From IMG/VR virus record IMGVR_UViG_3300033113_000110, positions 797-64,796 of that record: a stretch of DNA of 64,000 nucleotides; one strand, given 5' to 3'. This stretch comes from a virus. A program made the translations under genes and the position numbers. How positions within the stretch are numbered: position 1 is the first letter of the stretch; every line of letters starts with the position of its first letter. The notes beneath the pieces were generated by a model, which ran no database searches, had not been told where the DNA came from, and saw only the letters and a list, made by a program, of their open reading frames with translations. Positions 5,617 through 43,965 of this stretch are shown piece by piece.

Positions 5617-5653
5617 TTATCGATTCTTTTTATTGAGAAATTTAATAGATCTG

Positions 5654-6708: not shown

Positions 6709-6733
6709 AAAGGTGTATCTTATCTAATAGGTG

Positions 6734-6846: not shown

Positions 6847-6872
6847 GGGACTTTAGCTGATAGGATATATTT

Positions 6873-7983: not shown

Positions 7984-7995
7984 GGGTAAAGACGA

Positions 7996-9330: not shown

Positions 9331-9333
9331 TCT

Positions 9334-26673: not shown

Positions 26674-27162
26674 ATGTCAGAAGAAAGAAAATTGACGACG
26701 GTTGAAGACTTGCTTGGTGGTTACAAGGAGAAAGACCTTGAACTTTCTACAGGTAAAGTCTTTACAATTCAGTCATTCGCACCCGGAAATTTGATGATAG
26801 ATATTGGATCACCGCTTGTTCAGATGCTTATCGAGGCAAGTGAGGAAGATTTGCGTAGGACGACATTGGATATGCCGATGACGAATGCGGGTCGAGCTTG
26901 GACTCGGATCGAGCAACTTGTCTGTGATAATGTTACCTCTGTCCGATTTTCACCGGAGCCTCAGAATTATTTACCGACTGGGCTGGTTTCTTTACGAAGG
27001 CTTTCACTTGTTGAAATCCAAGAGCTCTATGTGGGGATTCAGGAATTGTCTATCTCACCGGAGGAACTTGAAAACTTTCGTAAAGTTCACAGAGAAAGTG
27101 AGGACGAATCAGAACAGTCGGAATTGGCTTCTGAGGACAGTGAGGATAGCGGAGAGGAGTAA
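26674..27162 (+). CDS. Tail assembly chaperone (G-like)
   Basis: KVFTIQSF..., acidic tail, ENFR motif; followed by an overlapping +1 frame ORF and a giant gene. Confidence 0.6.
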   Translation: MSEERKLTTVEDLLGGYKEKDLELSTGKVFTIQSFAPGNLMIDIGSPLVQMLIEASEEDLRRTTLDMPMTNAGRAWTRIEQLVCDNVTSVRFSPEPQNYLPTGLVSLRRLSLVEIQELYVGIQELSISPEELENFRKVHRESEDESEQSELASEDSEDSGEE

Positions 27163-27367
27163 AAGATCAGTCTACTCGTATCTGTTTTATCCTTGGCAGT
27201 ACTCAAAGTTTTTTGAGTTAGCGATTGAAGAATTTATTTCGGTCATTCTGGATGAGGAAGCAGAAGGTGTGGTTGAGAATGAACCGCTCCCGGAAATGCC
27301 ACGAGTGGATCTTAGTGGAGATAACTTCGATCCGTTTAATGTTGGTCTTAATTCTATGGGAGGATGA
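27077..27367 (+). CDS. T-like extension reached by a predicted +1 frameshift at TTT-CGT (27076-27081), giving an about 230-aa G-T fusion
   Basis: The +1 frame reads FVKFTEKVR...WLLRTVRIAERSKRSVYSYLF...LAIEEFISVILDEE; no RBS/ATG seen at its 5' end. Confidence 0.6.
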   Translation, partial: FVKFTEKVRTNQNSRNWLLRTVRIAERSKRSVYSYLFYPWQYSKFFELAIEEFISVILDEEAEGVVENEPLPEMPRVDLSGDNFDPFNVGLNSMGG

Positions 27368-27425: not shown

Positions 27426-30400
27426 ATGCGTCATCAGCGAAGCCTTACAGACGAAGAATTGGCGTTGCTTTCTGAACCTGTTGATCGTCCGACTGCAGAG
27501 TGGGACACATTTCAGGAGACGGGGCAATTGCGTCCAGTAGAGTCATCTCGACCGGAAGGACGAGTGATCGGTGGCCCTTGGGCTGCTTTTCATGGTGTTG
27601 AGGAACTTCCTGCTGATACCTCGCGGGAGGCTGATGATAATCCTTGGTATCCACGTTGGGGTGAGATAAGAAAGCATTTTTGGCCTTCTGCCGGTCGGTT
27701 GTATGATGAGGTGTTGGGGTATGTTTCACCTCAAATTTTATTTGATCGGTATGCTGGCTTTACAGAACAACAACGTGAAATAGGTTCTCTTGTTTCTGAT
27801 GCTGCTCGGTCTCTTTTTTCTTTTGATGTTTCACCACATTTTTTGACAGGTTCAGAGATTGGTACCCTTCCTACGACTCCCGAAGAAGACCTTTCATTTT
27901 ATCGTTCCCGCTTGGAAAGTCAATTTCCCCACACTGCTCCGTCTATGCCAGGTTATGATGATCCTAAAGTGGCGGAAGAATTGGAACTTCGGGAATTGAA
28001 GCGTAAGTACCCTTCACTTACTCAAATGAGTGAAGGGCTTCAGGCTCTAACACCGGTGCATCCTGAACGTGGATGGCAAGGCACACAGGCTCTTTCTCGT
28101 ATGGTTGAGCAAGAACCTTTTGAGTTTGCATTGGATATTGGGCTGTCGGCTACAGGTATCGGTGTGGGTGCTGCGGGTGTCCGTGGAACTGTTCGTGGTT
28201 TTCGCGTAGCTCGGCGTGCTGTGAGTCCATTAGAGGATATAGGAGATGCTCTTAGTGATATTGATGTGTTGACGGGTGAGTTATCGCCTGTAGGACGTTT
28301 ACGCCGTTCTACTGTGGATATAGAAGTTCAAGGGACTCGTTCTTGGGATCTTCAGAATTTATCGAGATTTGGTAGACGTAGAAGGGAATTGGGGACGGGT
28401 GTTCTTGTTTCGCCGACAGAGATCGTTACAGCTTCTCATACGCTTACTGGAAAAACGGATGCGGCTTTTCCGAATATAGAACGAATTACTGCGACAATAG
28501 CTGGTGGTCAACGTATCGATGTTGGAACAATTTCAGGGCTTTCGCCTGAAGCAGATATTGCGGTTTTGGATTTACCGGACTCTGTGGACGCTCCTTTATT
28601 GGATATTGCTGGCGATATTGATGACTTTGATGTGCTTTATGGTAAGTCTCGGATTGGCGAAGGTTATGATTCAGGGACTATTGGTAGGGAGATTGCTCGT
28701 GATCCGATAACGGGTGCGGCATTAAGAGAAACGAGCTATGTCGGTCGAGGTGGGTTGTCAGGGGCAGGTTTGGCTACTGAACGTGGTCAGCTGGCTGGTA
28801 TTTATTTAGGCACTTATGACGATGTGGGTATGTTTGCTGATGCTTCTACGGTTCAGCGTTTTCTGGAGGAAGATCGTCCTACGTTTGACGTTCAAGATTT
28901 TGATAGATCGTGGCATCGGCAACGCTTAATGGATCGTGCTTTGTATAATAGAGAGGGTGCTGAGATTGGATTAGGTGTTCGATCTTTGGATGCTCTTTCA
29001 ACTTTTGGTAGTCAATATGAACTTCAGTCTCGTGATCCTGATGATGATTGGCGTGGTTCGCTTTTGGGTATGCTCGAGGAGATGGAGCAATATAGACGTG
29101 TTGATGAGAGGCGATTGGCCTTAGATGATATACAATCGGCTATGTACGAGGGTTTAGGCTTCTCTCAAGATGCTACGCTTGCTGAAATGTTCCGTGCAGT
29201 TGAAAAAGACCCGGAATTGTTTTTCTATGTCGGTCGCCGCGGTGTTGATGTTGAGGATAGAGCCTATGTTGATCGTGGAGAGACGAAGCGGTATCGCCGT
29301 TGGGAAGAAGCTGGCTCTCCAGTAGATGAATTTGATTTTGAGAAAAGTAGTCGTCTGGTTCCGGCTGGTCAATTTCTTTCGGCTGAAGGTGTGGCTTCGC
29401 AGCACCCGCATGTTGTGAAGCATGGGGTATTCGGGTATGGAAACATTGAGGCTTTGGGGCAGCACTTGAGACAAGTTTTTGAAAAGGCTGGAGATGTTCC
29501 GCTCGATGATTATTCTTTACAGTTGGTGAGAGGTAGACCTTCTGAGATAGATGCTACAAAAATCGGCTATGGGGATGTAACGCGGAGATCGTCTGCTGAT
29601 TTTCTGCCTGGAGCTCAAGGGTTACTGGAATTTGATTTGCCTTCGTTGGATGTTTTACGGGATGTTTATTCTGAAGTGAGAGGGATGCGTTCACATCCGC
29701 GAATCGCTGAAGGACTTTCATGGATACCGGATCCGACGGTTACGAAAGATAGAGAAGGTCAATATATCCCTGTAGGTGAGAGACCGTCAACGGTAGTTGT
29801 TACGGAGCAGCTCTCTGATGAGATGGCGTTGTCTCGTATTCAGATTGCTCGGGGAACACCAGAAGGAATGGTTGTTGAACCGATGCTATTTCATGCCGAG
29901 GGACGGGCAAAGGCTGTTAAACGGAAGCCTATGCATGAGTGGACACATGAGGAATTAAGTAGGGAGACGCTTGTTGGGGAATCTTACTGGGTTCGGCAAG
30001 CTCGTGCTGAGATGTTTAGGAGACGTTTTGAATCTGCTAAGCAGCTCAGTGAACGCTTGGCAAATGCTCCGCCTGGTCAACGGATACCGGTGAGTTATGG
30101 GCGTGCTTTGCAGTCAGAAATTGCGCGAGACTTTGCTGCGGCTAAAAAACAGTCGGAGACTTGGGATTCAGAATACTCTTTTGAAACTGATATTGCCGCT
30201 GCTCATGCGGCTGAGGGGGCGCGGGATCATACGGAGGCTTTTAATCCACAGGACTATAAATCAGAATCTTGGGAGCCGGTAGGCGGTTATGTGGCTGACG
30301 ATGATAAAACAGGACAGTTTTATGAAGGTTGGGTCGATGAGCATGGTGATTTTCAGGATGTTTGGAAAGAAGGCGAGGAAATTGAGAAACAGGAATTGGA

Positions 30401-33400
30401 TGTCTTTTTGGAAGTGGAGGGTGATGATTATACTGAACCGGTGGCGGTCGGTTGGATTGATGAGTATGGAACCCATGATCCTGGTATGGATACTCCCGCG
30501 GGGATTGATGCAAATAAGTTGGCAGTTGATGTCGCTCGTGATGAACAGCGGCGTTTGTCGCCGGAGTCTCAATTGAAGATTTGGGACATGTTTTCGGGGT
30601 ATATTGAGAGACGGGAATATGAGCAGAAATTATTGACTGAGGGGGATCCTGAGTTAGAAGCAGAAATTATTGCTCGTATGGATGTCCGTGATCCTGATTG
30701 GCGTAGAAAGATGCGTGTTGCCTCGCGAGCGGATCGTTCTGTTCAGTCTCCTGGATTGCGTCCTTATTGGGAGCAGGCTGTTGCGGAACAACCGTCTTAT
30801 GGTGTTAGTGATGAGACGCTTTTTCACATGGATATTCCGCGTGAAGAATACTATCGATCTCAACGAAAGCATTGGCAAGTACGTGCCGATGAGCTTTGGT
30901 ATGGTGGGCAATTTGAGGAGTATTATCACCATGTAGAGCCGGTTCGGGAGCGGGCGTATCAATTGCATCGGCAGGCTCGTGATGCTGAATCTGCTGATCG
31001 TATTCAGATTACGGTAGGTGAAAAGGATACTTCGGCAGTGTATCCTGAGAGTGATGTTGATGCACAGAAATATCATTCGGCAGCTGCTATGGGAGTCTAT
31101 TTGCCTGATCCACCAGCAGCGCAATTGGCACAGACGGGAGTTGTTGATATTTCTATCCCGAGGCATGATCGAAGATTTCGTGATGAGACAAGTTTTGAAC
31201 GGGCACCGGATGATTTAGTGCTACGTGGGCAGAGACAGCAGCGTTATGGTGCTGAGCCGATGGATATTTTCATGGAGAATATCCTTTGGAAAGAAGCGGG
31301 TATCGAGGAAACGAAAAGAATCCCGGAAGTGAGTGGGGTAGTAGATGAATTTGTCTATGCATCGGAATTGGATGAAGATGTTGTTCGCTATAAGAAACCA
31401 TCGGGGGCGGTTGAGAGTTTTAATGTACCTGAAGCGGAGGCGTGGCATCGGAGTGATATAGAGGAAGGGCGGCTGGCACGTCCCCAGTATTCTTTTCGAG
31501 ATTCAGACACTGCTCCGCCTGTAGATGTTTTTGATGTTTATGGGTTAACAGAAGGAACGGAGTCTCTCACTTCTTTAGACTTGGCTACCTTGGGTTCGGT
31601 TCGACGGAATGTTTTGGAGAGATATACACCTCGGAGAGTTTGGGAAGCGGCACAGACGGCGGAGTATCGTCAAGCAGCGCGTAGACCTATCGGACAGGGT
31701 ATTGAGGAAGGCTTAACGGCTGATGAATTAAGGGACATCCGTTTGAGAGGTGAACAGATACGGGCTGAAAGGGCGTTTAATGAAGCAACGGCTGAAGGTG
31801 TTGCTTATGAGGCTGAAGCGCGTCGGACTGCTCAGGCTGGTGCTTATCGGATGCAAGAGGATCCGGCTGCAGCAGGAGCGCGTGAAGCGGTAGCAGAAGA
31901 ATTTAGACAGGAAAGGGAACGGGCGGATAAAGCTTTTCGTAAAGTGTGGGATGAAAGTAAGCGGGTTATTCGGGAATCTCCTGGAGAACTTCCCGAGGAA
32001 ATTGCTGATCCGCCGAGTAAGATCAAAAGACGCTATAATTTACACTCGTTGCCTTGGGAAGATGTTGAACCGCTTGACTTGGATACGCCTCGCGCGCGGT
32101 TGGCTGGCTTTGGCGGTATTGAGAGTGAACGGACTTATGGGCTTGAAATTGAACTTATTACAGATTTGACACGTGCGGATATGGAGCGTGAACTTGAGTG
32201 GCAGATGGCACAAGGGTTATCACTGAAGTATGATTTATCGTTGAGGACGGCACGTTCTGAAGTTGCTCTTGAACATCATCCCCCTGCTCATGTTCAGTTT
32301 TCTCGGATGCATCTGCCTGGTGAAATTCAACGTGCAGAAGCGGCGGATTATGAGAGGTACAGATCGCAGTTTACGGGGATGCCCGGTGAGGAAAGAATTC
32401 GTCCGGAAGATTTTGAGACTCGGTACGCACATGAATTGGTTTTCCCGGTAATGCAAGGTGAGGAAGGCTTAGAATTAATCGGTCAAACAGTCCGAAGGCT
32501 TCAGGAATTTGAGACTGAATTGAATACCTCGATGGGTATGCACGTTCATGTGGGTGCCCAGGATCTATCGAACTATGATTTGGTTGGGATTTGGGGAGCG
32601 TTTGCGGCACGTGAAGATGTGATTGATCTTATGCATGAACCGTCTCGGAGAGGTCAAGGTTCTGCTTATGCGGAGACTTTGGTGAGGGAGCGTGGTGAGG
32701 GTTCGTTTACTTCATTGGGTGAATTGCTACGTGCGGAGATGCGAGGTGGCGATCTTTCTCAAGCACAACCTGTCTCGGAATTGGAACGGATGCGTTCTCG
32801 ACTTGAAACTGCGCGTCGGCGGTCTTTGCTTTCATCGGAACGGCGAGAAGGTTTTTTGGATCAGGTAGGCTATGGGCATCGGTATCAGAAATTGAATCTT
32901 AGGGGATTTGAGCACCAGACGATCGAATATCGGCAACCGGCACCGACACTTGATGTTAGCGAGATTGAACACCATATCGGGTTTATCACGAACTTTGTGG
33001 ATGAGTTTTCAGGGAAGCCTTTAGAGTGGGCGATGAGACAGGATCCGAGATTACAACAGGAATATGCTGGTCTCGATTTGGTATTTGAAAGACCTGATGA
33101 AACTGGACAGTTGCTTCTATTCCCGGAAACTCGGACTGAACTTCATTCGGCAGATGAATTGACACCTTCGCAACGACAGGCAATGGAGCATACCTACGGT
33201 GCGGCGGCTGTGATTGCGGGTCCGGGTTCAGGTAAATCCAGAACATTGTTGGAGCGGTTGCGCTACTTGACTGAAACAATTGATGAGCAGTCTGGTAAGC
33301 CTATCGCAAGACCTGAAGATATTCTTACGCTCGTTTTTGGAAAAGAAGCAGAGAAGGATTTGATTGGACGGGGTGGAGAGTTTGGCGGCCCCTGGAACAT

Positions 33401-36400
33401 CTTTACGGTTGACGCTTTTGCGCGTGGCGTTGTTCGTGAGAATTTCGGGGAGCTTGGGTATGCACGGGCACCGGATATTTCTACGAGTACTTTTGAGGAT
33501 TGGCTCTCAGGGAAGCAGATACCAGAATTGGGGCTTTCGGGAGTTGGTGGTGACGGTGTTGAGGCATGGGCAAAACTTTATGAGGAAACTCGGCGTGGTT
33601 TTACTACCGGTAGAGAAGATTATTCGGCTTTACCTGAAGGGTTGCAAGGAGCGATCCGTGATTATCGACTTGAGAGATTTCATGCTGCGGAGATGGATTT
33701 TACTGATGCTATTTCGCAAGCCGGGTATCTTTTAGAGACGAATGAAGCGTTGCGTCAACGGTATCAAGATCGTTTTGAGTTTCTCCAGGTAGATGAATTT
33801 CAGGATATATCGCCGATCCAGTGGCGGTTTCTTCAGAATCTTTCTCCGAATCCTTGGGTTGTTGGTGATCTTGACCAAGGTATTATGTCCTTCCGTGGTG
33901 GCACTGGCACGGTGATGCGTGAGATGATTGAGTCTGGTGTCTCGTTGTATAATATCGAGGAAAATTTCCGCTCGACACCAGAGATTGTTACCGCGGCACA
34001 AGGGTTTATTCGATCGAATCTTGATAGACTTGATGTATCGCAATCAGCAGTGAAACCTTCGGGTGAACCGGTTATGATGGTTGGTGTTTCGCCTTTGACG
34101 ACTGAGCAGCAGGCGATTGCGCGTATTGCTGAACATGTAAGAGAAGGTGAAGAAACAGCGATTTTAACTGCAACGAATCGTGAAAAAGATGTTTTTGAAC
34201 ATGAGTTGGCTGCTGAGCTTCGGGGTCGCGGTTGGGAAGATCAGCAGATAAAAGACCATTTGACCTTTTCTACTATGCATTCTGCGAAGGGGCGGGAATG
34301 GCAGAATGTTTTCCTTCCGATTAATCTCCTTGAATCTGATTTTGGGAATACGCAGAGGCTTTTTACATTGCCTTCGCCTTATGCTCGGACTCCGTTTGAT
34401 TTTGCTGAACAGGAACGGGTCTTTTATGTCGCGATGACACGAGCACAGGAACGGCTTACAATTTTTGGGGATCCGCAGCATCCGTACTATGAACAGGTAA
34501 CTCGTGCGATAAGTGGTGTGGAGGAAGGTGCTGTGCCGTCTTATCTTGAACCACCGGATGATGTCCCGGAAGCTGCTGCGGCTTCAACACGAGGTGGTTT
34601 AGGCGGGTTCTTTGAACGTTTTGGTTCTGGACTTGATAGGTTTTTGCATGGCGATCCGACGCAGCGTACTCCGAGACGGGAAGGACGGCGGCGAGCTCGC
34701 ACTAAAACGGAATTGCATTCAGTGGATGAGCCTTATCGTGAAGGGTCTGATATTCCCGGTTTGGATCAGTTTCTCGATGTAGCAGATAGACATCCGGGTA
34801 TTTTTTATCGGTTTGAGAGTGATGATCCGTCAGGGTATGTTTCACAAGATTTAGCACAGACACATGCTATTTTGAGAGAACATGAAGGACAAGCAAATTT
34901 ACTTCCAGATTCTTTCATGGTGCCGGAGTTCGGGAAATATGATACGCTTATTCGTCCTGCTGGACAGGATCGCTGGAGTTTGTATGATCAGCAGCATGAG
35001 CAGGTAAATCGGGGAGAGAGGGAAGGAACTTTTGATCTTTATAGGGAAGAATATGATAGGGAAACGGATGATTTTGAATTTGTTTATTCGGGACCGGTGG
35101 AGATTGGTTATGTTGGGAGGCGTGGACTTTATGGGCATGTGGATCGTAGCTCTTTTGTAGAGGTGAGTCTAGAAGTGTTAGGGTTTCGGGCATCTCAAAC
35201 GCCTTTGCAACTTTCTGAAACTGACCGACATTTTTCTGTTCATTATGGAACATCGACTCCGTTTCGGCAGTACATAGGTGATCTGTCGGAGGGTGAAGAT
35301 GTTTTTATGTCGCATGGGGTACTGGCTCGGTTGCCAGTGAATTTGGATACTTCTGGAAGTTATGGTCAGCAACGTTATGCTGTTAATCCCAATTTAGGAG
35401 AGTTCATTGAAGCGGGTAACGTAAATTTGAATTGGTTGGCTCAGTCGATAGAGGCTCTCCCGCAGAATGTGAATGCTGATCGGATATGGGGTGATTATCT
35501 CGCGGGGCAACAAGGTTCGGAATTGCTTGGACTTGAGCGGGCTGTTGAGGGGAGTCGGCAATGGTTGGAAGGTAGACATCGTGGAGCGGTTCGTAGGGCG
35601 AGAAGTCGTCGAGTGCGCACTGATTTGCATAGCTTGGATGATTCAGATGATATTAATGCAAAGCTAAACGATATATGGGAAGATGAGCAAAACTTTTATG
35701 ATGCGAATTTTGCTTTAGATCCTCCGACTCCGGTTGAAGCTAACCCGGATATTTTGTTTGGGACTGATCCTACGCCTGAATCCGCTCCTGAATCTGTTCC
35801 TGATATTTTATTTGAATCTGAACTTGAGTCTTTTGCCTCTGATATTTCCGCTGCTCATAAGAGCGTGATGTCGGTAGAACTTGGACGTGGTTTAGGATTG
35901 GGGCAACGGCTTTCTCGGTGGTTCTCTGAAGCAGTGGAGGAGCGTGCTTGGGGTGGACTGACGCATTCAGCGGCGAATATTCTACAGGATGCTGCGACGA
36001 TTAATGTAGCGGCTTCGCTTGCAGTTGAAGGTGTTCGGACGGCGGTCGGGCATGATCTGAATATCGGTAGTCTGATCCATGCGGGTGCATCTACGATGGC
36101 GGCAATGGGGGCAAAGGCTGTTGATGCTCGTTTTGGGTCTCGTGGTGTGCTCCCGGAAGCTCGTGCTGATCTTGGTGCTTTGGCTGATGTTATTCAGGAT
36201 GTCCCGGAAGATGCCGCGGTGCATTTACAACGGATTTTCGAGGAAGCGGGTGCTGGTACTTCACGTTGGCGGCGAGGGAGTCTTGCTGATCAGTTAGAGC
36301 GTTATGACTGGAGTGGTCTTGAGTCGATGTTTGGTGAGTCAGGAGCGGCTTACCTCGATGAATTTGCTTACCAGACACGGCGGTTTGGACAACGAAGCTA

Positions 36401-39400
36401 TGGGACACAACGGAATTGGCAGGAATCATTACTTGATATTTATGCTGGTGGTATTCCACGCGCAACTCGGTATACTTATGATCCGAAATCTGGTGAAGTT
36501 GATTTTGAGATGAAGCGGCGGTGGACGCTCGATAGATTGCTCGAGGCGGGTTCGGATCGGTATCCACATTCACCGATAGGGGCGTGGCATGCTCGTCGTG
36601 AGCAGTTGAGAGAAGACCCGCGTCAAGATATGCTGCGGCATGTCTTTGGACCACTTCAAGGTGAAGATGTTAGACCACACGAGTTGTACATGTTGCTTCC
36701 CGAAGCACGCGGAATTGGACGCTTATTTGGGCGTTTCCATAGACGGCCAGATAATGATTGGGTCATGGAAGATATTGTTCGTGGTGTTGGGGCAACTCGA
36801 TGGGTGGATCGAATTGCTGAACGGAAGGAATTTAGGCGTGAACATCAGAGTATCCTTGAAGAACGGAGACGCTCGCCTGAGCTTTATCAGTGGCAAGACC
36901 CGGCACATTTCTATGGTAAGATTGCCGAGTCGCTCGGTATAGATACCTCGGATTTTGAAGGTTTTGGAGAACGTTTGGGGAGTCCATATTCTGAGTATGG
37001 TCGCTTTTTCTCACGATTGCCTAAAGCTGCGAAGTATCCGGTGATTGGTGGGGGTGCCGCCGTCGGTGGGAAACTTGGTTATGAGTTATTCTTCGGTGGA
37101 GACGATGATGAAGAATTAGTTCTTGATGATCCTGCTGGCTATTCGTTGTCTGCTCGGTATCCGATACTTGGTGCTGTTCAGCGGACACTTCCATATCGAC
37201 GGTTGCGAGCGAGAGCTGAAAATCTTCTCGATGATGTTTATGGTGAGGATTCTTTCCACAGTGAGATGTTGAAATCGATTGGTCTCGGAAAGAAAGGGAA
37301 TTTGCCGTGGGAAGTTAAGCAGACTTTTGTTCAGACTGGACAGATTCATGCTCTGGTTCAGTCGGGGATGCACGTATCGACTTTCTCGAATATCTTGTCT
37401 CGGTATCCGCTGCTTGCAGCACCAGCGGCTTTCTCGGCTGCGCGGGATGTGATCTCGCCGCCGGATGAAAGGGTGGTTGAACCTTCACAGTCTTTTTGGT
37501 CTAAATATCAATTGTCGCCTGATCCGTGGATACCGCGTTGGAATCCCGAACCTCCGACTTCTGGACAGATAAGTGCATTACAGTCGCAAGGGCTATTGGC
37601 TGATGATTATGAACTTGAGATTCCTGAACCGCCGTCGTGGGCTTGGTGGGATCCGGTTGAGAATTATCGTCGTGATGAGGAGGTTCGTGGACAGAAGTTG
37701 GCTACGGAAGGACAGGTGGATCTGCTTGGGTCTTTAGGGTTGTTGCCTGAAGGTTATGACCCTTCTGTTCATGAGCCTTCAGAGATTTCTTTGAATCGTG
37801 GACAACCTGGAATTCAGGATGTTTTGCCATGGTCGGTTTATGGGATGTTTGGTGTTCTGCCGGAGACAGGGTTTTCCTATTTTCGTTCGCGTGGTGATAT
37901 TCAGCGGAAGGATGAGGAAGGGAATTATAGGATTGATGGCTTTGAATTTGATGTTCAAGAGTCTCCGTTCCCTGGTTTCAATCCGTGGCTTGACCCACAT
38001 CCAGAGGGGATTTTGGGTGAAAGTCCCCCTGCTGAGGGGAGTTTTGATTGGGATTTTGGGCATGGATTGTTGGGTATTGGTGTCAATCAGTTTGCTGGAG
38101 TTGGATACGGTATTGGTGGTGGGATTCCTGATCCCGATGCGGAACTATTGGAACTCTATAAGGAACTTGGTATAGATCCGAAGCGGATTACAAGGGAAGA
38201 TGCAAGTAAGCTGATTGAGTATCAGAAGAAACAGCGGGAGGCTCAAGGGAATAAGGCGACGGAGAAACAGATTGTAGCATTGACGAAGATGTATCCGGGT
38301 AAAGATTTGTCTAAATTGACAAAAGAGCAAGCCTCGGAACTCTTTGATGCTTACGAACCGCCGCCTAAAATGGCATCGGATGCACAGCTCACGGCGTTGA
38401 AACGGATGTATCCTGATAAGGATTTGTCCGGGCTGACAATGGCACAAGCTTCAGAACTTTTTGATGCTTATGAACCGCCACCGAAGATGGCAACGGAAGT
38501 GCAGAAAGCGGCGTTGACTCGGATGTATCCCGATAAAGATTTGTCCGGACTGACGATGGTACAGGCTTCGGAACTTTTTGATACTTATGAACGTCCGGCA
38601 CGGAGTCAAGATGCAACGCAAGCTCAATTGGATTACTTAGATCGGCTGCGCGGTGGTGGTTTCGGTGATGTGATGCCTATTGAGGATGTTGATGAATCTG
38701 ATGGGCTAACACGTCAGGAAGTTTCAGCTTTGATAGATTTTGAGAAAGCGAAACGGCGTTCTGCTGAGATTTCTCGTGAGTCGGCTGGACCGACGATGGC
38801 TACTGAATCGCAACTTCGGTATCTTGGACAGTTGAACCCGGAACGATATGGCGGACTTTCTGGTGCTACTGAAGATGTGATGGGTATAGAAGATGTTACT
38901 TTCGATGATGGGATCACGGCTCTTGAAGCGAGAACGCTTTTTGATTATGAGGACGCGGTTCGGAAGTCGCGTGAGTCGGCTGGACCGGCAATGGCTTCGG
39001 ATGCACAATTACAGGTACTGCAACGGATGTTCCCGGATCAGTTCGGGGCATCGAGTGGTGTAGAAGTAGAAGAACCACCGATGATGGGAATCGAGGAGAT
39101 AACTTTCGATGATGGGATTACTCGGCGTGAAGCGGCAGCTCTGTTTGATTATGGTGAGGCTGTACAGAAATCTGCCGGGCCCCCAATGGCATCGGAAGCA
39201 CAAATTGCCGCACTTCAGCGTTATTTCCCGCAGATGTTTGAACCGACTGAACAGGCTGAGGAAGAACCGCTTGTACCGTTGGGGCAGATAGATTTTACAG
39301 ACGGGGTTACGCGTGAGGAAGCACGGCAAGCTTTTCGGCATGTGCCTGAAATGCCGCCGCCGATGGCAACACAGAGACAGATTGATCGTTTAGAAATGGA

Positions 39401-40577
39401 GTTTCCGCATGCTTTCAGGCATGTCGGACGGGTGGATCAGTATCTTCAGACGGGTCAATCCTATGGTGTTGTGAAGTCTTTGGAAGACATCTATGATGCG
39501 GATACTTTTACCGGTATGCTTTTTGATGCACCTACGGGGCAACTTTTCAAGGAGGATACGGTTCGACTTGGAGATTTCAACGCACCAGAGATTAAGCCGG
39601 ACCCGAGTAAGCCGCTCGAATATCAGGAACGTGAAGCGGCACGGGCACGCGAGGCACGAGATGTTTTTCGGTCTATGGTTCAGCGTTTTAATATCGGTCG
39701 AGATGTCGATCAGGAAGGCTATGTGATTCCGATTCAGTATAGGCATGATGCTCAGATGCTTGGTGGATTGGCTCGTGGGAAATATGGTCGGGTCTTAGGT
39801 GATGTTGATTTTGAAGGGGTTGATTATGAGCAGTTTATGATTCAACAGGGGATGGGGTCTGTCTATGGGGCGAGTGTCGAATGGGGTGCACGAGAGATTG
39901 ATCCACTTGAATTGTGGCGGCGGTCTCCGACTTTCTTAGAACAGTTCGGTGAGGGGACGACGGGTCTCCTATGGCAAATTCCTGAAGTGGCTATTGGCGG
40001 TGTTTTTCAAGGTATGGATCCGTTTGATGCTCTTACTGAGACTGTGGCACAGGTGCCGGGTGCTTTGAAGGATATGGCGATAGGACAGGCAAAGCAGACA
40101 TTGACTCAGGCAACGAAGGACTTTTTCAAGGAACGTTTCACGGATGAATTTACGCCGAATAATCTTTCATTCGCTCAGCGGTATATTGGGGATTTCGGTG
40201 GTGTCGGTGAGAAAGTAGGTGTCTTCAAAGATAAAGCGGCTGGCTTCCTTCAAAGTGGATGGGGCGCAGCTATCGCTCCGGCAGCTCTTGCGGCTGGCAC
40301 TGCTATCATTGGAGAACGTAGCTTGGATATGAACTATGCTGAGGTTATACCGACCCGGGAAGATCGGGTGAAGGCGTTTGATCATTATGTTTCGCAGCGG
40401 CAAGAATCTACTACGGGGGGGGCGATGAGTTCTGATGATGCTGCTTTGCGGGTGATAAAGAAGGCGTTGCGTGAAGTGCTTTCTGAATCAGGGCTTGGGT
40501 CTATGGATGATCTATCGACGAAACTGGATCGGAAATTACGGGAATCGGATAGGCGGGGGATTACGCGTCCGAGATAA
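27426..40577 (+). CDS. 4383-aa polyvalent protein in the tape-measure position: trypsin-like protease, amidoligase, UvrD helicase, helical repeats, SNase nuclease
   Basis: Protease about 28290-28870 (VTASH/DIAVL/GLSG); amidoligase about 32120-33010 (YGLEIE/GMHVHVG/RYQKLN/TIEYR); SF1A helicase about 33150-34500 (GPGSGKS/VDEFQD/GDLDQ/NFRS/TMHSAKGREW/ERVFYVAMTRA); SNase about 39460-39880 (IYDADT/VRLGDFNAPE/GKYGRVLG). Confidence 0.9.
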   Translation: MRHQRSLTDEELALLSEPVDRPTAEWDTFQETGQLRPVESSRPEGRVIGGPWAAFHGVEELPADTSREADDNPWYPRWGEIRKHFWPSAGRLYDEVLGYVSPQILFDRYAGFTEQQREIGSLVSDAARSLFSFDVSPHFLTGSEIGTLPTTPEEDLSFYRSRLESQFPHTAPSMPGYDDPKVAEELELRELKRKYPSLTQMSEGLQALTPVHPERGWQGTQALSRMVEQEPFEFALDIGLSATGIGVGAAGVRGTVRGFRVARRAVSPLEDIGDALSDIDVLTGELSPVGRLRRSTVDIEVQGTRSWDLQNLSRFGRRRRELGTGVLVSPTEIVTASHTLTGKTDAAFPNIERITATIAGGQRIDVGTISGLSPEADIAVLDLPDSVDAPLLDIAGDIDDFDVLYGKSRIGEGYDSGTIGREIARDPITGAALRETSYVGRGGLSGAGLATERGQLAGIYLGTYDDVGMFADASTVQRFLEEDRPTFDVQDFDRSWHRQRLMDRALYNREGAEIGLGVRSLDALSTFGSQYELQSRDPDDDWRGSLLGMLEEMEQYRRVDERRLALDDIQSAMYEGLGFSQDATLAEMFRAVEKDPELFFYVGRRGVDVEDRAYVDRGETKRYRRWEEAGSPVDEFDFEKSSRLVPAGQFLSAEGVASQHPHVVKHGVFGYGNIEALGQHLRQVFEKAGDVPLDDYSLQLVRGRPSEIDATKIGYGDVTRRSSADFLPGAQGLLEFDLPSLDVLRDVYSEVRGMRSHPRIAEGLSWIPDPTVTKDREGQYIPVGERPSTVVVTEQLSDEMALSRIQIARGTPEGMVVEPMLFHAEGRAKAVKRKPMHEWTHEELSRETLVGESYWVRQARAEMFRRRFESAKQLSERLANAPPGQRIPVSYGRALQSEIARDFAAAKKQSETWDSEYSFETDIAAAHAAEGARDHTEAFNPQDYKSESWEPVGGYVADDDKTGQFYEGWVDEHGDFQDVWKEGEEIEKQELDVFLEVEGDDYTEPVAVGWIDEYGTHDPGMDTPAGIDANKLAVDVARDEQRRLSPESQLKIWDMFSGYIERREYEQKLLTEGDPELEAEIIARMDVRDPDWRRKMRVASRADRSVQSPGLRPYWEQAVAEQPSYGVSDETLFHMDIPREEYYRSQRKHWQVRADELWYGGQFEEYYHHVEPVRERAYQLHRQARDAESADRIQITVGEKDTSAVYPESDVDAQKYHSAAAMGVYLPDPPAAQLAQTGVVDISIPRHDRRFRDETSFERAPDDLVLRGQRQQRYGAEPMDIFMENILWKEAGIEETKRIPEVSGVVDEFVYASELDEDVVRYKKPSGAVESFNVPEAEAWHRSDIEEGRLARPQYSFRDSDTAPPVDVFDVYGLTEGTESLTSLDLATLGSVRRNVLERYTPRRVWEAAQTAEYRQAARRPIGQGIEEGLTADELRDIRLRGEQIRAERAFNEATAEGVAYEAEARRTAQAGAYRMQEDPAAAGAREAVAEEFRQERERADKAFRKVWDESKRVIRESPGELPEEIADPPSKIKRRYNLHSLPWEDVEPLDLDTPRARLAGFGGIESERTYGLEIELITDLTRADMERELEWQMAQGLSLKYDLSLRTARSEVALEHHPPAHVQFSRMHLPGEIQRAEAADYERYRSQFTGMPGEERIRPEDFETRYAHELVFPVMQGEEGLELIGQTVRRLQEFETELNTSMGMHVHVGAQDLSNYDLVGIWGAFAAREDVIDLMHEPSRRGQGSAYAETLVRERGEGSFTSLGELLRAEMRGGDLSQAQPVSELERMRSRLETARRRSLLSSERREGFLDQVGYGHRYQKLNLRGFEHQTIEYRQPAPTLDVSEIEHHIGFITNFVDEFSGKPLEWAMRQDPRLQQEYAGLDLVFERPDETGQLLLFPETRTELHSADELTPSQRQAMEHTYGAAAVIAGPGSGKSRTLLERLRYLTETIDEQSGKPIARPEDILTLVFGKEAEKDLIGRGGEFGGPWNIFTVDAFARGVVRENFGELGYARAPDISTSTFEDWLSGKQIPELGLSGVGGDGVEAWAKLYEETRRGFTTGREDYSALPEGLQGAIRDYRLERFHAAEMDFTDAISQAGYLLETNEALRQRYQDRFEFLQVDEFQDISPIQWRFLQNLSPNPWVVGDLDQGIMSFRGGTGTVMREMIESGVSLYNIEENFRSTPEIVTAAQGFIRSNLDRLDVSQSAVKPSGEPVMMVGVSPLTTEQQAIARIAEHVREGEETAILTATNREKDVFEHELAAELRGRGWEDQQIKDHLTFSTMHSAKGREWQNVFLPINLLESDFGNTQRLFTLPSPYARTPFDFAEQERVFYVAMTRAQERLTIFGDPQHPYYEQVTRAISGVEEGAVPSYLEPPDDVPEAAAASTRGGLGGFFERFGSGLDRFLHGDPTQRTPRREGRRRARTKTELHSVDEPYREGSDIPGLDQFLDVADRHPGIFYRFESDDPSGYVSQDLAQTHAILREHEGQANLLPDSFMVPEFGKYDTLIRPAGQDRWSLYDQQHEQVNRGEREGTFDLYREEYDRETDDFEFVYSGPVEIGYVGRRGLYGHVDRSSFVEVSLEVLGFRASQTPLQLSETDRHFSVHYGTSTPFRQYIGDLSEGEDVFMSHGVLARLPVNLDTSGSYGQQRYAVNPNLGEFIEAGNVNLNWLAQSIEALPQNVNADRIWGDYLAGQQGSELLGLERAVEGSRQWLEGRHRGAVRRARSRRVRTDLHSLDDSDDINAKLNDIWEDEQNFYDANFALDPPTPVEANPDILFGTDPTPESAPESVPDILFESELESFASDISAAHKSVMSVELGRGLGLGQRLSRWFSEAVEERAWGGLTHSAANILQDAATINVAASLAVEGVRTAVGHDLNIGSLIHAGASTMAAMGAKAVDARFGSRGVLPEARADLGALADVIQDVPEDAAVHLQRIFEEAGAGTSRWRRGSLADQLERYDWSGLESMFGESGAAYLDEFAYQTRRFGQRSYGTQRNWQESLLDIYAGGIPRATRYTYDPKSGEVDFEMKRRWTLDRLLEAGSDRYPHSPIGAWHARREQLREDPRQDMLRHVFGPLQGEDVRPHELYMLLPEARGIGRLFGRFHRRPDNDWVMEDIVRGVGATRWVDRIAERKEFRREHQSILEERRRSPELYQWQDPAHFYGKIAESLGIDTSDFEGFGERLGSPYSEYGRFFSRLPKAAKYPVIGGGAAVGGKLGYELFFGGDDDEELVLDDPAGYSLSARYPILGAVQRTLPYRRLRARAENLLDDVYGEDSFHSEMLKSIGLGKKGNLPWEVKQTFVQTGQIHALVQSGMHVSTFSNILSRYPLLAAPAAFSAARDVISPPDERVVEPSQSFWSKYQLSPDPWIPRWNPEPPTSGQISALQSQGLLADDYELEIPEPPSWAWWDPVENYRRDEEVRGQKLATEGQVDLLGSLGLLPEGYDPSVHEPSEISLNRGQPGIQDVLPWSVYGMFGVLPETGFSYFRSRGDIQRKDEEGNYRIDGFEFDVQESPFPGFNPWLDPHPEGILGESPPAEGSFDWDFGHGLLGIGVNQFAGVGYGIGGGIPDPDAELLELYKELGIDPKRITREDASKLIEYQKKQREAQGNKATEKQIVALTKMYPGKDLSKLTKEQASELFDAYEPPPKMASDAQLTALKRMYPDKDLSGLTMAQASELFDAYEPPPKMATEVQKAALTRMYPDKDLSGLTMVQASELFDTYERPARSQDATQAQLDYLDRLRGGGFGDVMPIEDVDESDGLTRQEVSALIDFEKAKRRSAEISRESAGPTMATESQLRYLGQLNPERYGGLSGATEDVMGIEDVTFDDGITALEARTLFDYEDAVRKSRESAGPAMASDAQLQVLQRMFPDQFGASSGVEVEEPPMMGIEEITFDDGITRREAAALFDYGEAVQKSAGPPMASEAQIAALQRYFPQMFEPTEQAEEEPLVPLGQIDFTDGVTREEARQAFRHVPEMPPPMATQRQIDRLEMEFPHAFRHVGRVDQYLQTGQSYGVVKSLEDIYDADTFTGMLFDAPTGQLFKEDTVRLGDFNAPEIKPDPSKPLEYQEREAARAREARDVFRSMVQRFNIGRDVDQEGYVIPIQYRHDAQMLGGLARGKYGRVLGDVDFEGVDYEQFMIQQGMGSVYGASVEWGAREIDPLELWRRSPTFLEQFGEGTTGLLWQIPEVAIGGVFQGMDPFDALTETVAQVPGALKDMAIGQAKQTLTQATKDFFKERFTDEFTPNNLSFAQRYIGDFGGVGEKVGVFKDKAAGFLQSGWGAAIAPAALAAGTAIIGERSLDMNYAEVIPTREDRVKAFDHYVSQRQESTTGGAMSSDDAALRVIKKALREVLSESGLGSMDDLSTKLDRKLRESDRRGITRPR
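38250..38600 (+). repeat. Three tandem 117-bp (39-aa) repeats in the giant gene, with degenerate copies to about 39400
   Basis: MASDAQLTALKRMYPDKDLSGLTMAQASELFDAYEPPPK. Confidence 0.9.
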
Positions 40578-40709: not shown

Positions 40710-40829
40710 ATGATCTGGCGAAATAAATATCGTATTCCTCATCGATGGCGAAAACGATGGTATGATTTTTTTACTCGGATCGCTTGGTGGGGTTTTAATT
40801 TCGGAATCGAGGTGAAACATGAAGATTGA
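40710..40829 (+). CDS. 39-aa Trp/Arg-rich peptide (not in ORF track)
   Basis: MIWRNKYRIPHRWRKRWYDFFTRIAWWGFNFGIEVKHED; GGAGG RBS. Confidence 0.55.
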   Translation: MIWRNKYRIPHRWRKRWYDFFTRIAWWGFNFGIEVKHED

Positions 40830-41025
40830 TACGGATGATCCGAGAATCCTTTTAGAGAATGGTTTCTGTGAGATGATCCGGCATATTCAGGATGTTGTTG
40901 AGAATCATAGAGTCTTCCCGGCTGAGATCACTTTGCCTGTGGTCGAGGGGAATTCTCAGAACTTGCAGCTTACTTTGAAGATGCAATGGTCTCCAAAAGT
41001 GGTTTCTATTGAGGAAAGTTCGTGA
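40819..41025 (+). CDS. Hypothetical protein
   Basis: 68 aa, GAGG RBS. Confidence 0.5.
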   Translation: MKIDTDDPRILLENGFCEMIRHIQDVVENHRVFPAEITLPVVEGNSQNLQLTLKMQWSPKVVSIEESS

Positions 41026-41173: not shown

Positions 41174-41725
41174 TTGAATGGTAATAAACGGAAGGGTCGA
41201 AAAGGGAAGAAATTTACGAAGCAAATCGCAAATCAGATTGCTCATTTTCTTCATGATGGGAAAACGGAAGACGAGATCCGTGCGGAATTAGAGCTTAATA
41301 ATAATGATTTCTGGAAGTGGACCGCGCTTGCTGTCTTTGGGTTGCCGGATACGCGGACACCTGAAGAAGAAATACTTCGGGATGCTATCTTTGATGTGAT
41401 GCTTGGTGAAACATTGCTGAAAAGGGTACTTGAAGTTTCAACTGATACAACAGAGAAGCGGATCATGAAGGTTACGACGCTTTTGAATCTTACGGGTCCC
41501 GAGGCTGCGGCTTTGGAACGGAAAGGTAATAAAAGGTTTGTCGAGGAATTTGAAGGCTCTGCTGTCAATTTGAAAGTGGAGGAAACGATTGAGACGATTC
41601 CGCCAGCTATATCGCTTTTAGAGAAACTTCTGAAATTGGCTGAAGGGAATGTCTCGGTTCAGAATGCTTTGAAACAACTGACACCGTTTAATCCTATTGA
41701 TCCTGAACTCGAGGATGAGGTGTAG
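41174..41725 (+). CDS. terS: Terminase small subunit (probable)
   Basis: N-terminal basic/HTH segment (KKFTKQIANQIAHFLHDGKTEDEIRAEL), upstream of terL; TTG start after AGGAGG. Confidence 0.6.
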   Translation: MNGNKRKGRKGKKFTKQIANQIAHFLHDGKTEDEIRAELELNNNDFWKWTALAVFGLPDTRTPEEEILRDAIFDVMLGETLLKRVLEVSTDTTEKRIMKVTTLLNLTGPEAAALERKGNKRFVEEFEGSAVNLKVEETIETIPPAISLLEKLLKLAEGNVSVQNALKQLTPFNPIDPELEDEV

Positions 41726-42441: not shown

Positions 42442-43965
42442 ATGGCACGGATATCTGATTATAAACTTTATGGAAATGGACGGAAAGCGTGGCGGTGTCG
42501 TGACCTTGAGCTTATGCTTGTCGGTGGGGCGAACACAGGTAAAACGCTTTGTAATATGATGTTTGCGCATGTTTTTGCCCAGAAATATCCTGGAAGCCGG
42601 ATACTTTTTGTTCGGAAATCTTTGGCGGATCTTGTCAGAAATGCTGTTGCGACTTATGAAAAAGTGATTCTTCCTTGTCCACTTGATGATCCGTCTTGTC
42701 CAGTTATATTAAAAACTACGAAAGAAGGTTCTTCGTATTATTTATATAAGGAGACAGGATCGGAAATTCATCGAGGTGGGATCAAAGATTCAGGCTCGAT
42801 ACTTTCTGGTGAGTATGATTTGATCATTGTTATTCAGGCGGAGCAGATAGATGAAGATGATTGGGAAGTTTTCTTGACGCGTCTCGGACGGGGTGCGGGT
42901 GCGAATGCTCCTTATGCTCAGATCAGAGGGGACGCAAACCCGCATATCCTTGGTATGATGCACTGGATTATGAGACGGAAGGGGATGACGCTTTACAAAT
43001 TCTTTAGGGAGGATAATCCGGCTCTTTACAATCAAGAAACGGGTGAAATTACGAAGCTCGGTATTCAGACAGAGGATTTTCTGGATAGGCTTACGGGAAC
43101 GAGGCGGAAGCATCTTCGGGAAGGGGAATGGACAGGATCGGATCGGATGGTCTTTCCTGAATACAACGATGATATTCATGTGATTGATTTGGAGTTTCTC
43201 CAACGTCTTGATGTGAAATTTGAAAAGTGGTACCTCGGTATGGATTGGGGGTATTCTATTGATCCTGGCTCTTTGACGCTTTATGGGCTGACAGAACCTT
43301 CAACACCTGACTTTTTTGATGAGAAGGCTTTGAGTCAGGAATTTAGTATTCAGCCTGAAGATTTGGATGAGATATTGGGGAGTTTGTTTGAGTTGCCATG
43401 CTTGGTTGCGATGCGGCAGACTTATAGGCTTGGGGAGTTGACACCTTTTTGGCGGAGACGGGCAATTGCGTATGATCGTTGGGTTCGGAGATATTTTGGC
43501 GGGTATGTTCACAAAATGATTTGTGATAAGTCTCGGCCGGATAATATTGAGGAGATGCGGTTAGGGGAATTGCCTGCTGTGAAGACGGACGGAGCACAGG
43601 GGAGTATTCGGGAAAACATTAATGCGATACAGACTCGGTTAGAGCGGAATACGCTTTTTTTCCTTCGGAATAATCTTGATGGTCGTGATGAAATTTTGGA
43701 ATCGCAGTATAAACCGCTTTGTACGGCTGATGAGATGCCTCATTATGAGAATCCTAAGCCGAAAAAACTCGCTCGGAAGTTGCCGGATCCGGTCGGTGCT
43801 AATCATGGAATTGATGAGCTTGGTTATATTTGTCGTGATCTTCATAATTTCTTGGATAATACTGCTGTGGAAGTTGATGTTTTTTCTGGACAACAGGTTT
43901 TGGATACTCGGTTGTCGATTGAAAAGCCGCCGCCACCAGCGCGATGGCGAGGGTATATTAATTAG
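42442..43965 (+). CDS. terL: Terminase large subunit (PBSX-like)
   Basis: Walker A VGGANTGKT; RKS...L; GDANP coupling motif; nuclease GMDWG...DP, CDKSRP, NHGIDELGY. Confidence 0.88.
   Translation: MARISDYKLYGNGRKAWRCRDLELMLVGGANTGKTLCNMMFAHVFAQKYPGSRILFVRKSLADLVRNAVATYEKVILPCPLDDPSCPVILKTTKEGSSYYLYKETGSEIHRGGIKDSGSILSGEYDLIIVIQAEQIDEDDWEVFLTRLGRGAGANAPYAQIRGDANPHILGMMHWIMRRKGMTLYKFFREDNPALYNQETGEITKLGIQTEDFLDRLTGTRRKHLREGEWTGSDRMVFPEYNDDIHVIDLEFLQRLDVKFEKWYLGMDWGYSIDPGSLTLYGLTEPSTPDFFDEKALSQEFSIQPEDLDEILGSLFELPCLVAMRQTYRLGELTPFWRRRAIAYDRWVRRYFGGYVHKMICDKSRPDNIEEMRLGELPAVKTDGAQGSIRENINAIQTRLERNTLFFLRNNLDGRDEILESQYKPLCTADEMPHYENPKPKKLARKLPDPVGANHGIDELGYICRDLHNFLDNTAVEVDVFSGQQVLDTRLSIEKPPPPARWRGYIN

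Follow-up and report, generated by a model that had tools for sequence, protein, structure and literature searches.

Tape measure proteins of tailed phages, such as lambda gpH with gpG/gpGT, T5 Pb2 and the mycobacteriophage proteins with embedded muralytic motifs, are known to undergo proteolytic trimming and to contain inserted enzymes, and the G/GT chaperone pairs mostly use a -1 frameshift. In the polyproteins of positive-strand RNA viruses, one open reading frame (ORF) includes an embedded chymotrypsin-fold protease (3C/3CL), and the cleavage sites have Leu at P2, Gln or His at P1, and a small residue at P1'; coronavirus Mpro prefers L-Q|S/A/G (here and below, the bar marks the position of the cut). 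Polyvalent proteins, which include P1 DarB/DdrB, N4 vRNAP, and phi24B gp47, are very large and join enzymatic to DNA-binding domains in combinations that vary (Iyer et al. 2017, PMC5512222). Their delivery with the DNA has been proposed, as has the release of parts by a peptidase domain (PMC5512222), and phi24B gp47, a polyvalent protein of 2811 amino acids (aa), was found in virions by proteomics. In this study, we analysed a window of 64,000 nucleotides (positions 797 to 64,796 of IMG/VR virus record IMGVR_UViG_3300033113_000110), and found that it encodes a giant protein, P0001, which, judged from its sequence, is most likely a self-processing polyprotein with an embedded serine protease. 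The whole source record is a linear IMG/VR virus contig of 68,448 bp with a CheckV completeness of 64%.

27426..40577, + strand: giant ORF P0001, 4383 aa, ATG start, read directly from the window.

The coordinates and length given for this ORF in the initial annotation of the window were exact. Its start codon is backed by sequence comparison, the N-terminus being kept in relatives, and the reading frame continues for 13 kb without internal stops. Two kinds of element carry our interpretation of P0001, a protease domain close to the N-terminus and a short motif, x-[E/D/N]-L-[H/Q]-S, which recurs at five sites and separates the modules of the protein.

27426..29027, + strand: module A, residues 1-534, with a conserved N-terminal peptide, a weakly hydrophobic Gly/Ala segment (232-256), and an S1 protease (BLAST and phmmer module maps, hydropathy).
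28392..28802, + strand: Trypsin_2 (S1B, Spl/V8/HtrA-like) serine protease domain, triad H338/D377/S445 (Pfam, alignment, PDB profile).
29016..29030, + strand: junction 1, Y-E-L-Q|S, residues 531-535, predicted cut 534/535 (aligned with relatives directly after the protease).
32034..32048, + strand: junction 2, Y-N-L-H|S, residues 1537-1541, predicted cut 1540/1541 (motif; a BLAST high-scoring segment pair (HSP) to P0002 begins at 1538).
33135..33149, + strand: junction 3, T-E-L-H|S, residues 1904-1908, predicted cut 1907/1908 (motif; HSPs end or start at 1909-1914 in seven relatives).
34707..34721, + strand: junction 4, T-E-L-H|S, residues 2428-2432, predicted cut 2431/2432 (motif; HSPs end at 2432-2439).
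35619..35633, + strand: junction 5, T-D-L-H|S, residues 2732-2736, predicted cut 2735/2736 (motif).

The H-D-S motifs first read as those of a trypsin-like protease belong to a recognisable domain. When P0001 was scanned in segments, Pfam Trypsin_2 matched residues 323-459 with 34.2 bits (cut-off 27.6), a match found only in this way, beyond the full-length Pfam scan. The triad residues come in the order His-Asp-Ser; Asp and Ser are invariant in 9/9 aligned sequences, and the His is present in 8/8 sequences whose segment was included in the alignment. Against the PDB, the profile of the protease module found SplE of S. aureus as the best solved match (5mm8, E=3.8e-7); the next matches were V8-type glutamyl endopeptidases and HtrA. 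The measured cleavage consensus of SplE is (L/V)-(W/Y/F)-L-(H/Q)|(S/G), as given in PMC7926377 quoting Stach et al. 2018, where P1 His is reported as unique within family S1. The junction motif of P0001 agrees with the SplE consensus at P2 (Leu), P1 (His/Gln), and P1' (Ser). From this agreement we infer that the scissile bond would lie between H/Q and S, that the embedded protease would be the enzyme that cuts there, and that it would have P1 His/Gln specificity. SplE differs from the phage protease in being a secreted stand-alone bacterial enzyme, and at P3, where the phage sites are acidic and SplE takes an aromatic residue.

The motif is strongly enriched in P0001 and in its relatives. [EDN]LHS is seen 4 times in P0001 against 0.08 expected, ELHS 6 times in P0008 against 0.05 expected (it is the most enriched 4-mer of this protein), and FEQHS 3 times in P0006 against 0.003 expected; in each case none of 1000 shuffles reached the count. 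In a second test, the pattern was fixed from the first nine proteins and then applied to later-retrieved representatives, with 500 shuffles each. Three sites were found in P0011, P0015, and P0018, and six in P0012 and P0022 (0/500 shuffles each). The site right after the protease can be aligned family-wide, with H or Q preceding S or A, and the counterparts of junction 1 in relatives read ELH|S, QVH|S, GLH|S, QLH|S, EQH|S, and DLQ|S. The flavour of the motif differs by lineage (T-E-L-H-S; [V/I]-E-L-H-S; F-E-Q-H-S; L-H-S-G), as expected from co-evolution with a protease encoded in cis.

The positions of the sites are as informative as their number. Module borders defined by the ends of BLAST HSPs (1538, 1909-1914, and 2432-2439) coincide with motif sites, and in relatives the motif brackets the cassettes that are swapped (DprA, helicase, amidoligase), as it does the DprA domains of P0018 and P0022. 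Self-processing, already proposed in the initial annotation, is thus well supported by a junction motif that matches SplE specificity, at the level of sequence. Cis-autoproteolysis of the GPS/Nup98 type was also considered, but the sequences on either side of the sites are linkers unrelated to each other and not a single folded domain, and this mechanism was rejected for that reason.

Cleavage at all five junctions would yield six products: residues 1-534 with the protease, an acidic module of 1006 aa, an amidoligase (1541-1907), a helicase (1908-2431), a cassette of 304 aa, and a C-terminal fragment of 1648 aa. The four products between the protease and the C-terminal fragment correspond to the following modules.

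29028..32045, + strand: module B, residues 535-1540, acidic, partly conserved in relatives (phmmer matches to relatives).
32046..33146, + strand: module C, residues 1541-1907, Amidoligase_2 (Pfam, phrog_2443).
33147..34718, + strand: module D, residues 1908-2431, compact UvrD/SF1A helicase of 524 aa (Pfam, phrog_1967 at 4e-53, motifs).
34719..35630, + strand: module E, residues 2432-2735 (304 aa), a cassette of no named family, also in P0010, P0018, and P0022.

Two of these have clear family assignments, both as originally annotated. The COOH-NH2 ligase type 2/amidoligase corresponds to Pfam Amidoligase_2, which matches residues 1568-1855 with 70.7 bits (cut-off 22) and covers profile positions 2-242 of 245. 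The compact SF1A helicase contains both UvrD domains, UvrD-helicase (PF00580, 96.5 bits, 1912-2167) and UvrD_C (PF13361, 70.7 bits), together spanning 1912-2346, and the motifs GPGSGKS (Walker A), VDEFQD (II), TMHSAKG (V), and FYVAMTRA (VI) can be read directly; since the module has only 524 aa, its accessory subdomains must be reduced. Module B has no Pfam match. Module E, which is flanked by the junction motif in P0010, P0018, and P0022 too, gave only chance-level matches in a PDB profile search and no usable match in the ESM Atlas.

The C-terminal fragment, module F, is the largest of the predicted products.

35631..40574, + strand: module F, residues 2736-4383 (1648 aa), with core, DNA-binding-type repeats, SNase-like domain, and C-terminus (BLAST maps, core search).
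35886..38015, + strand: family-defining core, residues 2821-3530 (710 residues), mostly helical (core search of 1.84 billion representatives).
38256..39455, + strand: eight consecutive A[TS]xxQ...[LI]TxxEA two-helix modules (regex, TRF, AF2).
39432..39920, + strand: SNase-like (OB-fold nuclease) domain, about residues 4003-4165 (Foldseek, hhalign, phrog_452).
40224..40574, + strand: conserved C-terminus with a Gly/Ala-rich hydrophobic helix (4271-4300), ending ...LRESDxRGITR (reading of relatives, BLAST).

The core was modelled by AF2 with a pLDDT of 52.7, and neither Foldseek against PDB, nor VIA-align wide (a generic long-helix match only, Z ~8), nor BFVD gave anything usable for its fold. 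In BFVD, rows naming tail or tape-measure proteins appeared for the core at E>=0.05, those naming tape measure proteins at E 0.3-0.4 with probability <=0.06, all from a low-confidence model. The ESM Atlas gave no usable match and no tape-measure-like features for module F, and no tape-measure family of Pfam or PHROGs matched P0001.

The helical ATxxQ modules, put at about nine in the initial annotation, were counted as nine by regular expression, A[TS]xxQxxxL starting at residues 3426, 3611, 3650, 3689, 3730, 3792, 3857, 3922, and 3981, of which eight are consecutive (3611-3981). Three of the modules form a 117-nt tandem repeat (TRF), and AF2 models the units as helix-loop-helix, with pLDDT 70-78 for the first three. 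Their copy number ranges from 0 to 11 among relatives, and they are probably DNA-binding.

For the C-terminal SNase, the earlier assignment stands at the level of fold, where the model points to an OB-fold, together with faint phrog and hhalign signals; at the level of sequence, the domain has no Pfam match at E<=1 and no PDB match. The region is modelled by AF2 with moderate confidence (pLDDT 60-79), and its best 50 Foldseek PDB matches are all staphylococcal nuclease (probability 0.93-1.00, mostly ~0.99; E ~1e-2; TM ~0.5). PHROGs gave phrog_452 "endonuclease" at E=0.0025, and hhalign aligned the domain with the stand-alone SNase of the same genome (12562-13152) at E=0.0047, with R-x-x-G-I-D-x-P-E and G-R-x-x-x-D-V in register; the corresponding R-L-G-D-F-N-A-P-E and G-R-V-L-G-D of P0001 align with SNase motifs. 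At the position of the Ca-ligand Asp40, as aligned by eye, P0001, P0002, P0005, and P0006 have Asn and P0003 and P0004 have Asp. Among the domains originally listed, the SNase is the weakest call.

The C-terminal ending was seen by eye in all nine full-length members first retrieved; BLAST backs it in P0002-P0008, not in P0009. Ala/Gly-rich hydrophobic segments of the kind previously likened to those of tape measures are indeed present at three places (232-256, 2849-2874, and 4271-4300), but they are weak, with a Kyte-Doolittle maximum of 1.47. About 2300-2500 aa of P0001 remain unassigned, in line with the earlier estimate of about 2500; besides the core of 710 residues, some 2300 residues show no recognisable fold.

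P0001 is a member of a small family of giant proteins. Eight related proteins, of 3320-4750 aa, were retrieved by a word-indexed search, and at least 16 relatives of several thousand residues are now counted in independent metagenomes. An exhaustive HMMER search with the core found only 20 clusters among the 1.84 billion representatives, nearly all of them long proteins or fragments of the family. Marine metagenomes, in part sponge-associated, are the main source of the relatives, which lie on independent ENA and JGI contigs, including one from a sponge metagenome, with shared synteny. BLAST maps show three near-universal parts, the N-terminal protease module, the core 2821-3530, and the last ~115 residues, and the rest varies: the amidoligase is missing in P0004 and P0006, the helicase is missing in P0005 and P0007, P0018 and P0022 carry DprA, and P0007-P0009 have ComEA-type HhH repeats (HhH_3) and a GIY-YIG domain instead of the ATxxQ repeats and SNase. 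At the P0008 locus, a separate Amidoligase_2 gene of 1008 aa shares 20 nt with the start of the giant gene, and represents either a natural split of the polyprotein or its N-terminal part separated by a frameshift. Neither megablast for near-identical phage DNA nor tblastn of module F against 50,697 phage records gave a match, and a scan of IMG/VR with the core alignment found no relative.

This variation in cassettes, present or absent in at least nine relatives, resembles that of polyvalent proteins. Thus, the earlier comparison of P0001 to these proteins holds with regard to the many unrelated domains in variable combinations, but not with regard to their hallmark domains: MuF, LPDs, the zincin MPTase, ArdC-N, and the methylase-SNF2 dyad are all absent from the Pfam matches of P0001, of its segments, and of the precomputed Pfam lists of the relatives. 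In addition, the peptidase of P0001, unlike that of polyvalent proteins, is an S1 serine protease with repeated cut-site motifs that can be read from the sequence. The text of PMC5512222 has no amidoligase, trypsin-like peptidase, or SNase, and UvrD only for the giant protein of an actinomycete plasmid. The nearest experimental precedent for the presence of such a protein in virions is phi24B gp47. No description of the architecture of P0001 was found in the literature searched, so the initial remark that the combination is not known from described proteins stands. The resemblance to RNA virus polyproteins extends to the single ORF, the embedded protease, and the residues at P2, P1, and P1', but P0001 belongs to a dsDNA tailed phage, has Ser rather than Cys as nucleophile, and contains DNA-enzyme modules, and common descent is not indicated. 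Processing by prohead proteases (T4 gp21; SPN3US gp245 of the phiKZ-like phages, PMC10052503) is alike in using short consensus sites for trimming virion-internal proteins before delivery; those proteases, in contrast, are free-standing enzymes of the assemblin fold that process many gene products, whereas the P0001 protease lies within its substrate. What is unusual in P0001 is the processing map that can be read from the sequence, and the core of 710 residues without detectable fold.

The giant gene lies in an operon with the order 162-aa chaperone-like gene ("G-like"), +1-frame ORF, giant gene, small ORF, TerS-like gene, and TerL gene, and this order is kept in the related loci L001, L004, and L010.

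26674..27162, + strand: 162-aa tail-assembly-chaperone-like gene (G-like), first in the operon (ESM Atlas features).
27140..27367, + strand: +1-frame ORF overlapping the 3' end of G-like ("T-like" extension; frame conserved in six loci).
41174..41725, + strand: 183-aa TerS-like gene (position only).
42442..43965, + strand: terminase large subunit TerL (phrog_2 E=9.6e-16; tblastn 30% identity, E=1e-38).

In the ESM Atlas, the features of the G-like protein gave 0.93 to DUF7391/"tail assembly chaperone" clusters and 0.91-0.92 to Phage_TAC_1/Phage_TAC_5, and structure matches had TM 0.53 and 0.49. The gene is kept upstream of the giant gene at 68-74% identity in L001, L004, and L005, and has a homologue in L010. 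The +1 frame is open across the stop of G-like in the window, L001, L004, L005, and L006, and an overlapping +1-frame ORF exists in L010 also (overlaps at 27100-27367 in the window, 9740-9982 in L001, 2085-2335 in L004, 7690-7948 in L005, and 9735-9995 in L010). Past the G stop, this frame changes at synonymous third positions (Leu CTG/CTC/CTT/CTA, Ser TCG/TCT/TCC), and these changes sit upstream of an ATG that only some genomes have. The 3' end of G-like reads GATAGCGGAGAGGAGTAA; GATAGYGGAGAGGART at the G end is kept in four genomes, and so is a GGAGAG stretch there, which has GAG readable in both frames. The overlap fits a candidate programmed frameshift of the G/GT type, with a net shift of +1, perhaps -2. 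Alternatively, the T-like extension may be made by independent initiation; its start varies, with GTG (27140) in the window, ATG in L010, and none at this position in L001 and L004. A complex prediction for the G-like protein with the conserved C-terminal 234 residues of P0001 scored 0.00, which is evidence neither for nor against binding.

Downstream of the giant gene, the TerS-like protein has no family match; it is 36-49% identical in L001 and L004, has a homologue in L010, and is always encoded just upstream of TerL. The tblastn match of TerL is the annotated TerL of a Streptomyces phage. Right after the giant gene, the relatives have a Cys/His-rich ORF of 77 aa (CHSFMWCCPDSKSWHGH; L001 21882-22115, L004 13898-14131, and L005 18368-18601), possibly zinc-binding, and the 68-aa ORF at 40819-41025 of the window is not homologous to it.

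Two of the earlier proposals on this neighbourhood have partial support. For chaperone G/GT genes before the giant gene speak the Atlas likeness and the +1 extension conserved in six loci, whereas Pfam, PDB, and PHROGs are silent. For the tape-measure slot, the upstream side with its chaperone-like gene agrees, but the downstream side has TerS-like and TerL rather than tail-tip genes, and the operon is apart from the fibre block; distal-tail or baseplate-hub genes following the giant gene were looked for, and TerS-like and TerL, or a strand switch, were found instead. P0001 is like tape measures in lying right after a chaperone-like gene with an overlapping out-of-frame extension, and in its long, largely helical build with variable tandem repeats and Gly/Ala-rich hydrophobic segments. 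It differs from them in being followed by terminase genes, in having 3-5x the usual length, in carrying cytoplasmic DNA enzymes rather than cell-wall enzymes, in the lack of any detected tape-measure family, and in an extension in the +1 rather than the usual -1 frame. The C-terminal fragment may be a true tape measure or a head-stored ejection protein; the upstream side fits a tape measure, and the downstream side does not.

Taken together, these data are consistent with the following scenario, which we hold at somewhat better than an even chance: P0001 would be a self-processing polyprotein of an uncultivated tailed phage, escorted by a chaperone into the virion and leaving it with the DNA. 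The escort into the virion is suggested by the order of the operon (G-like, T-like, giant, TerS-like, TerL), in which the tail-assembly-chaperone-type protein would take the giant protein to its place, either the lumen of the tail, as for a tape measure, or the interior of the head. The embedded S1B protease (H338/D377/S445) would cut after His/Gln at x-[E/D/N]-L-[H/Q]|S, leaving a C-terminal fragment with the core, the eight tandem two-helix modules, the SNase-like domain, and the weakly hydrophobic conserved tail. The products may act on the incoming genome by binding, unwinding, trimming, or protecting it, and may modify targets in the host; the amidoligase, in particular, may modify a host or phage target. 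Observed are the domains, the motif with its statistics and its position at module borders, the kinship of the protease, and the synteny, while cleavage itself, the scissile bond, packaging, ejection, and targets of the products are predicted. A role on incoming DNA fits the cassettes found across the family (UvrD, DprA, ComEA-like HhH, SNase, GIY-YIG, and two-helix repeats). In a more specific version, offered tentatively and at distinctly less than even chance, P0001 would be a self-cleaving polyprotein in the tape-measure position, whose chaperone-escorted C-terminal scaffold carries an enzyme train through the tail ahead of the DNA, and whose SplE-like protease frees the enzymes at L-H|S, in effect a competence-like DNA-uptake kit in the virion of a dsDNA phage.

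Several observations weigh against this scenario. The chaperone assignment is based on language-model features and TM ~0.5 only: the G-like protein has no match in Pfam (E<=10), PHROGs, or a PDB profile search (which gave only spurious designed armadillo repeats), and a search of the genome with the DUF7391 HMM found nothing. The T-like ORF may start by itself, from the GTG in the window and the ATG in L010. Tail genes are not downstream of the giant gene, and in L005/L006 a strand switch comes right after the giant gene and the 77-aa ORF, with not even TerL following. The hydrophobic segments are under the usual transmembrane thresholds. P0016 is without any site under the fixed pattern. Where SplE has its S1-pocket His (GVHFG), the aligned residue of the phage enzymes is Tyr (GIYLG), and SplE-like specificity is therefore not guaranteed. 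Finally, the contig is only ~64% complete, and a conventional tape measure may therefore lie elsewhere.

A separate tape measure was looked for in the fibre blocks of relatives, where no gene of >900 aa besides the giant one was found; the head and tail-tube regions lie outside the stretches covered. The proteins of 733 and 613 aa in these blocks are collagen-like fibre proteins. No portal, capsid, or tail-tube family was found in the whole genome by Pfam or PHROGs, and the structural genes must therefore be very divergent or off the contig.

Storage in the head rather than the tail is a less probable alternative, though the most probable of those considered. Here P0001 would be a head-packaged ejection (polyvalent) protein, kept in the capsid like P1 DarB, N4 vRNAP, and phi24B gp47, with the upstream protein as merely a dedicated folding or targeting chaperone. 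The sharing of an operon with TerS-like and TerL, apart from the fibre/baseplate block, agrees with this, and so do the lack of tape-measure-like features in module F in the Atlas and the precedent for virion proteins of several thousand residues; the conserved N-terminal peptide could be a capsid-targeting signal. However, a chaperone-like gene with an overlapping +1 ORF is the classic signature upstream of tape measures, and the hallmark polyvalent domains (MuF, LPDs, MPTase, ArdC-N) were not detected.

The minus-strand blocks of early/replication-type genes on both sides of the operon, and the usefulness of a helicase, DprA, and nuclease in replication, would suit an intracellular polyprotein that is never packaged and is cut, as in RNA-virus polyproteins, into replication, repair, and anti-defence enzymes. 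We regard this as improbable, because the giant gene shares its strand and operon with the terminase and chaperone-like genes, because no role inside the cell is obvious for a non-enzymatic conserved fragment of 1648 aa with its repeats and hydrophobic tail, and because the ComEA-like HhH and DprA modules in the family point to DNA entry.

Still less probable is one uncleaved giant multidomain protein, in which the L-H-S motif serves for linking or docking or is recognised by a different protease, for example that of the prohead or one of the host. Delivery without cutting is described for N4 vRNAP and certain plasmid polyvalent proteins that contain a peptidase domain (PMC5512222), and the changed S1-pocket residue would be in line with this; but the motif agrees with the P2-P1-P1' preference of the closest characterised protease, its variation between lineages goes along with that of the embedded protease, and its positions are precisely the borders of the cassettes.

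An assembly chimera or spurious ORF, named in the initial annotation as what would overturn its reading, has next to no probability and is ruled out, with nothing found in its favour: P0002 shares 60-63% identity with P0001 in modules C, D, and F and ~28% in A and B, the 13-kb frame is uninterrupted, and the at least 16 giant relatives in independent metagenomes include proteins of like architecture with shared synteny on independent ENA/JGI contigs.

With regard to the rest of the genome, the minus-strand blocks flanking the operon include genes for SSB, DUF932, Sipho_Gp157, and methylases. A plus-strand block (1026-15607) encodes Ig-domain fibre-like proteins and, at its end, a lysis cassette; the lysis-type cassette (12562-15607) contains the SNase, three small proteins with hydrophobic helices, Phage_lysozyme (14217-14825), and a 236-aa protein with a signal-peptide-like N-terminus. 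The stand-alone SNase homologue in this cassette (12562-13152) has 196 aa and an N-terminal hydrophobic helix (Pfam SNase 2e-5, phrog_452 3.5e-11), and a membrane-anchored nuclease beside holin-like genes would be unusual. In relatives, the fibre block is preceded by collagen-like fibre genes and glycosyltransferases: at 2809-6914 of L008, collagen-like (GDTGD-repeat) fibre proteins of 613 and 733 aa are encoded upstream of a homologue of the 734-aa Ig-domain protein, with glycosyltransferase genes further upstream. The genome also encodes two GIY-YIG/NUMOD homing endonucleases, a ParA-like ATPase, a Mu Gam-like protein, SSB, DUF5131, DUF932, Sipho_Gp157, and several DNA methylases. Just outside the window, L003 1278-1757 (- strand; genome 65777-66256) encodes a homologue of the NADAR antitoxin of DarT1 (150.8 bits, E=1e-45), likely a counter-defence gene against DarT-type DNA ADP-ribosylation. 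At the start of the contig (genome 1-1872, L002) there are 39-nt tandem repeats and, directly upstream of the fibre-like block, a 470-aa minus-strand ORF (window 3-1076, - strand), which, by elimination, is probably the DDE transposase reported by Pfam; insertion of an insertion sequence, or the repeat, may explain why the assembly stops there.

As for the host, a scan of GTDB genomes found one contig of 4.6 kb (L007, VXNY01000005.1) with a fragment of a family member, in the bin of a metagenome-assembled genome of a sponge Gammaproteobacterium; a contig of this length is too short to name the host. P0031, a homologue of the 734-aa fibre-like protein of the window, is labelled Candidatus Poribacteria. 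These two are hints only, and point to sponge symbionts. On a TARA scaffold, the 734-aa fibre-like protein that neighbours the giant one has a homologue, but the giant protein itself does not. A halophilic virus, considered from the acidic composition and from TerL matches to haloviruses, was dropped, as the genome contains a bacterial SSB and lysozyme, and the source-named relatives come from sponge and TARA samples.

In summary, if the proposed scenario is true, P0001 would be the first phage-delivered giant protein with a processing map readable from its sequence, with a named protease, five to six cut sites, and a solved homologue, SplE, of rare P1 His specificity. Two old proposals would then be directly testable, that polyvalent proteins are cut into effectors, and how proteins of several thousand residues are handled in virions. 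Such a protein would bring the RNA-virus-style polyprotein strategy into the virion of a dsDNA phage. It would also link tape-measure or ejection proteins with anti-defence and genome-establishment enzymes, which are usually treated apart, and its family's cassettes resemble proteins of natural competence (DprA, ComEA-type HhH, helicase, and nuclease). A highly specific His/Gln-directed protease with natural sites could be useful as a tool enzyme, and the core of 710 residues, having no recognisable fold, therefore probably hides new biochemistry.

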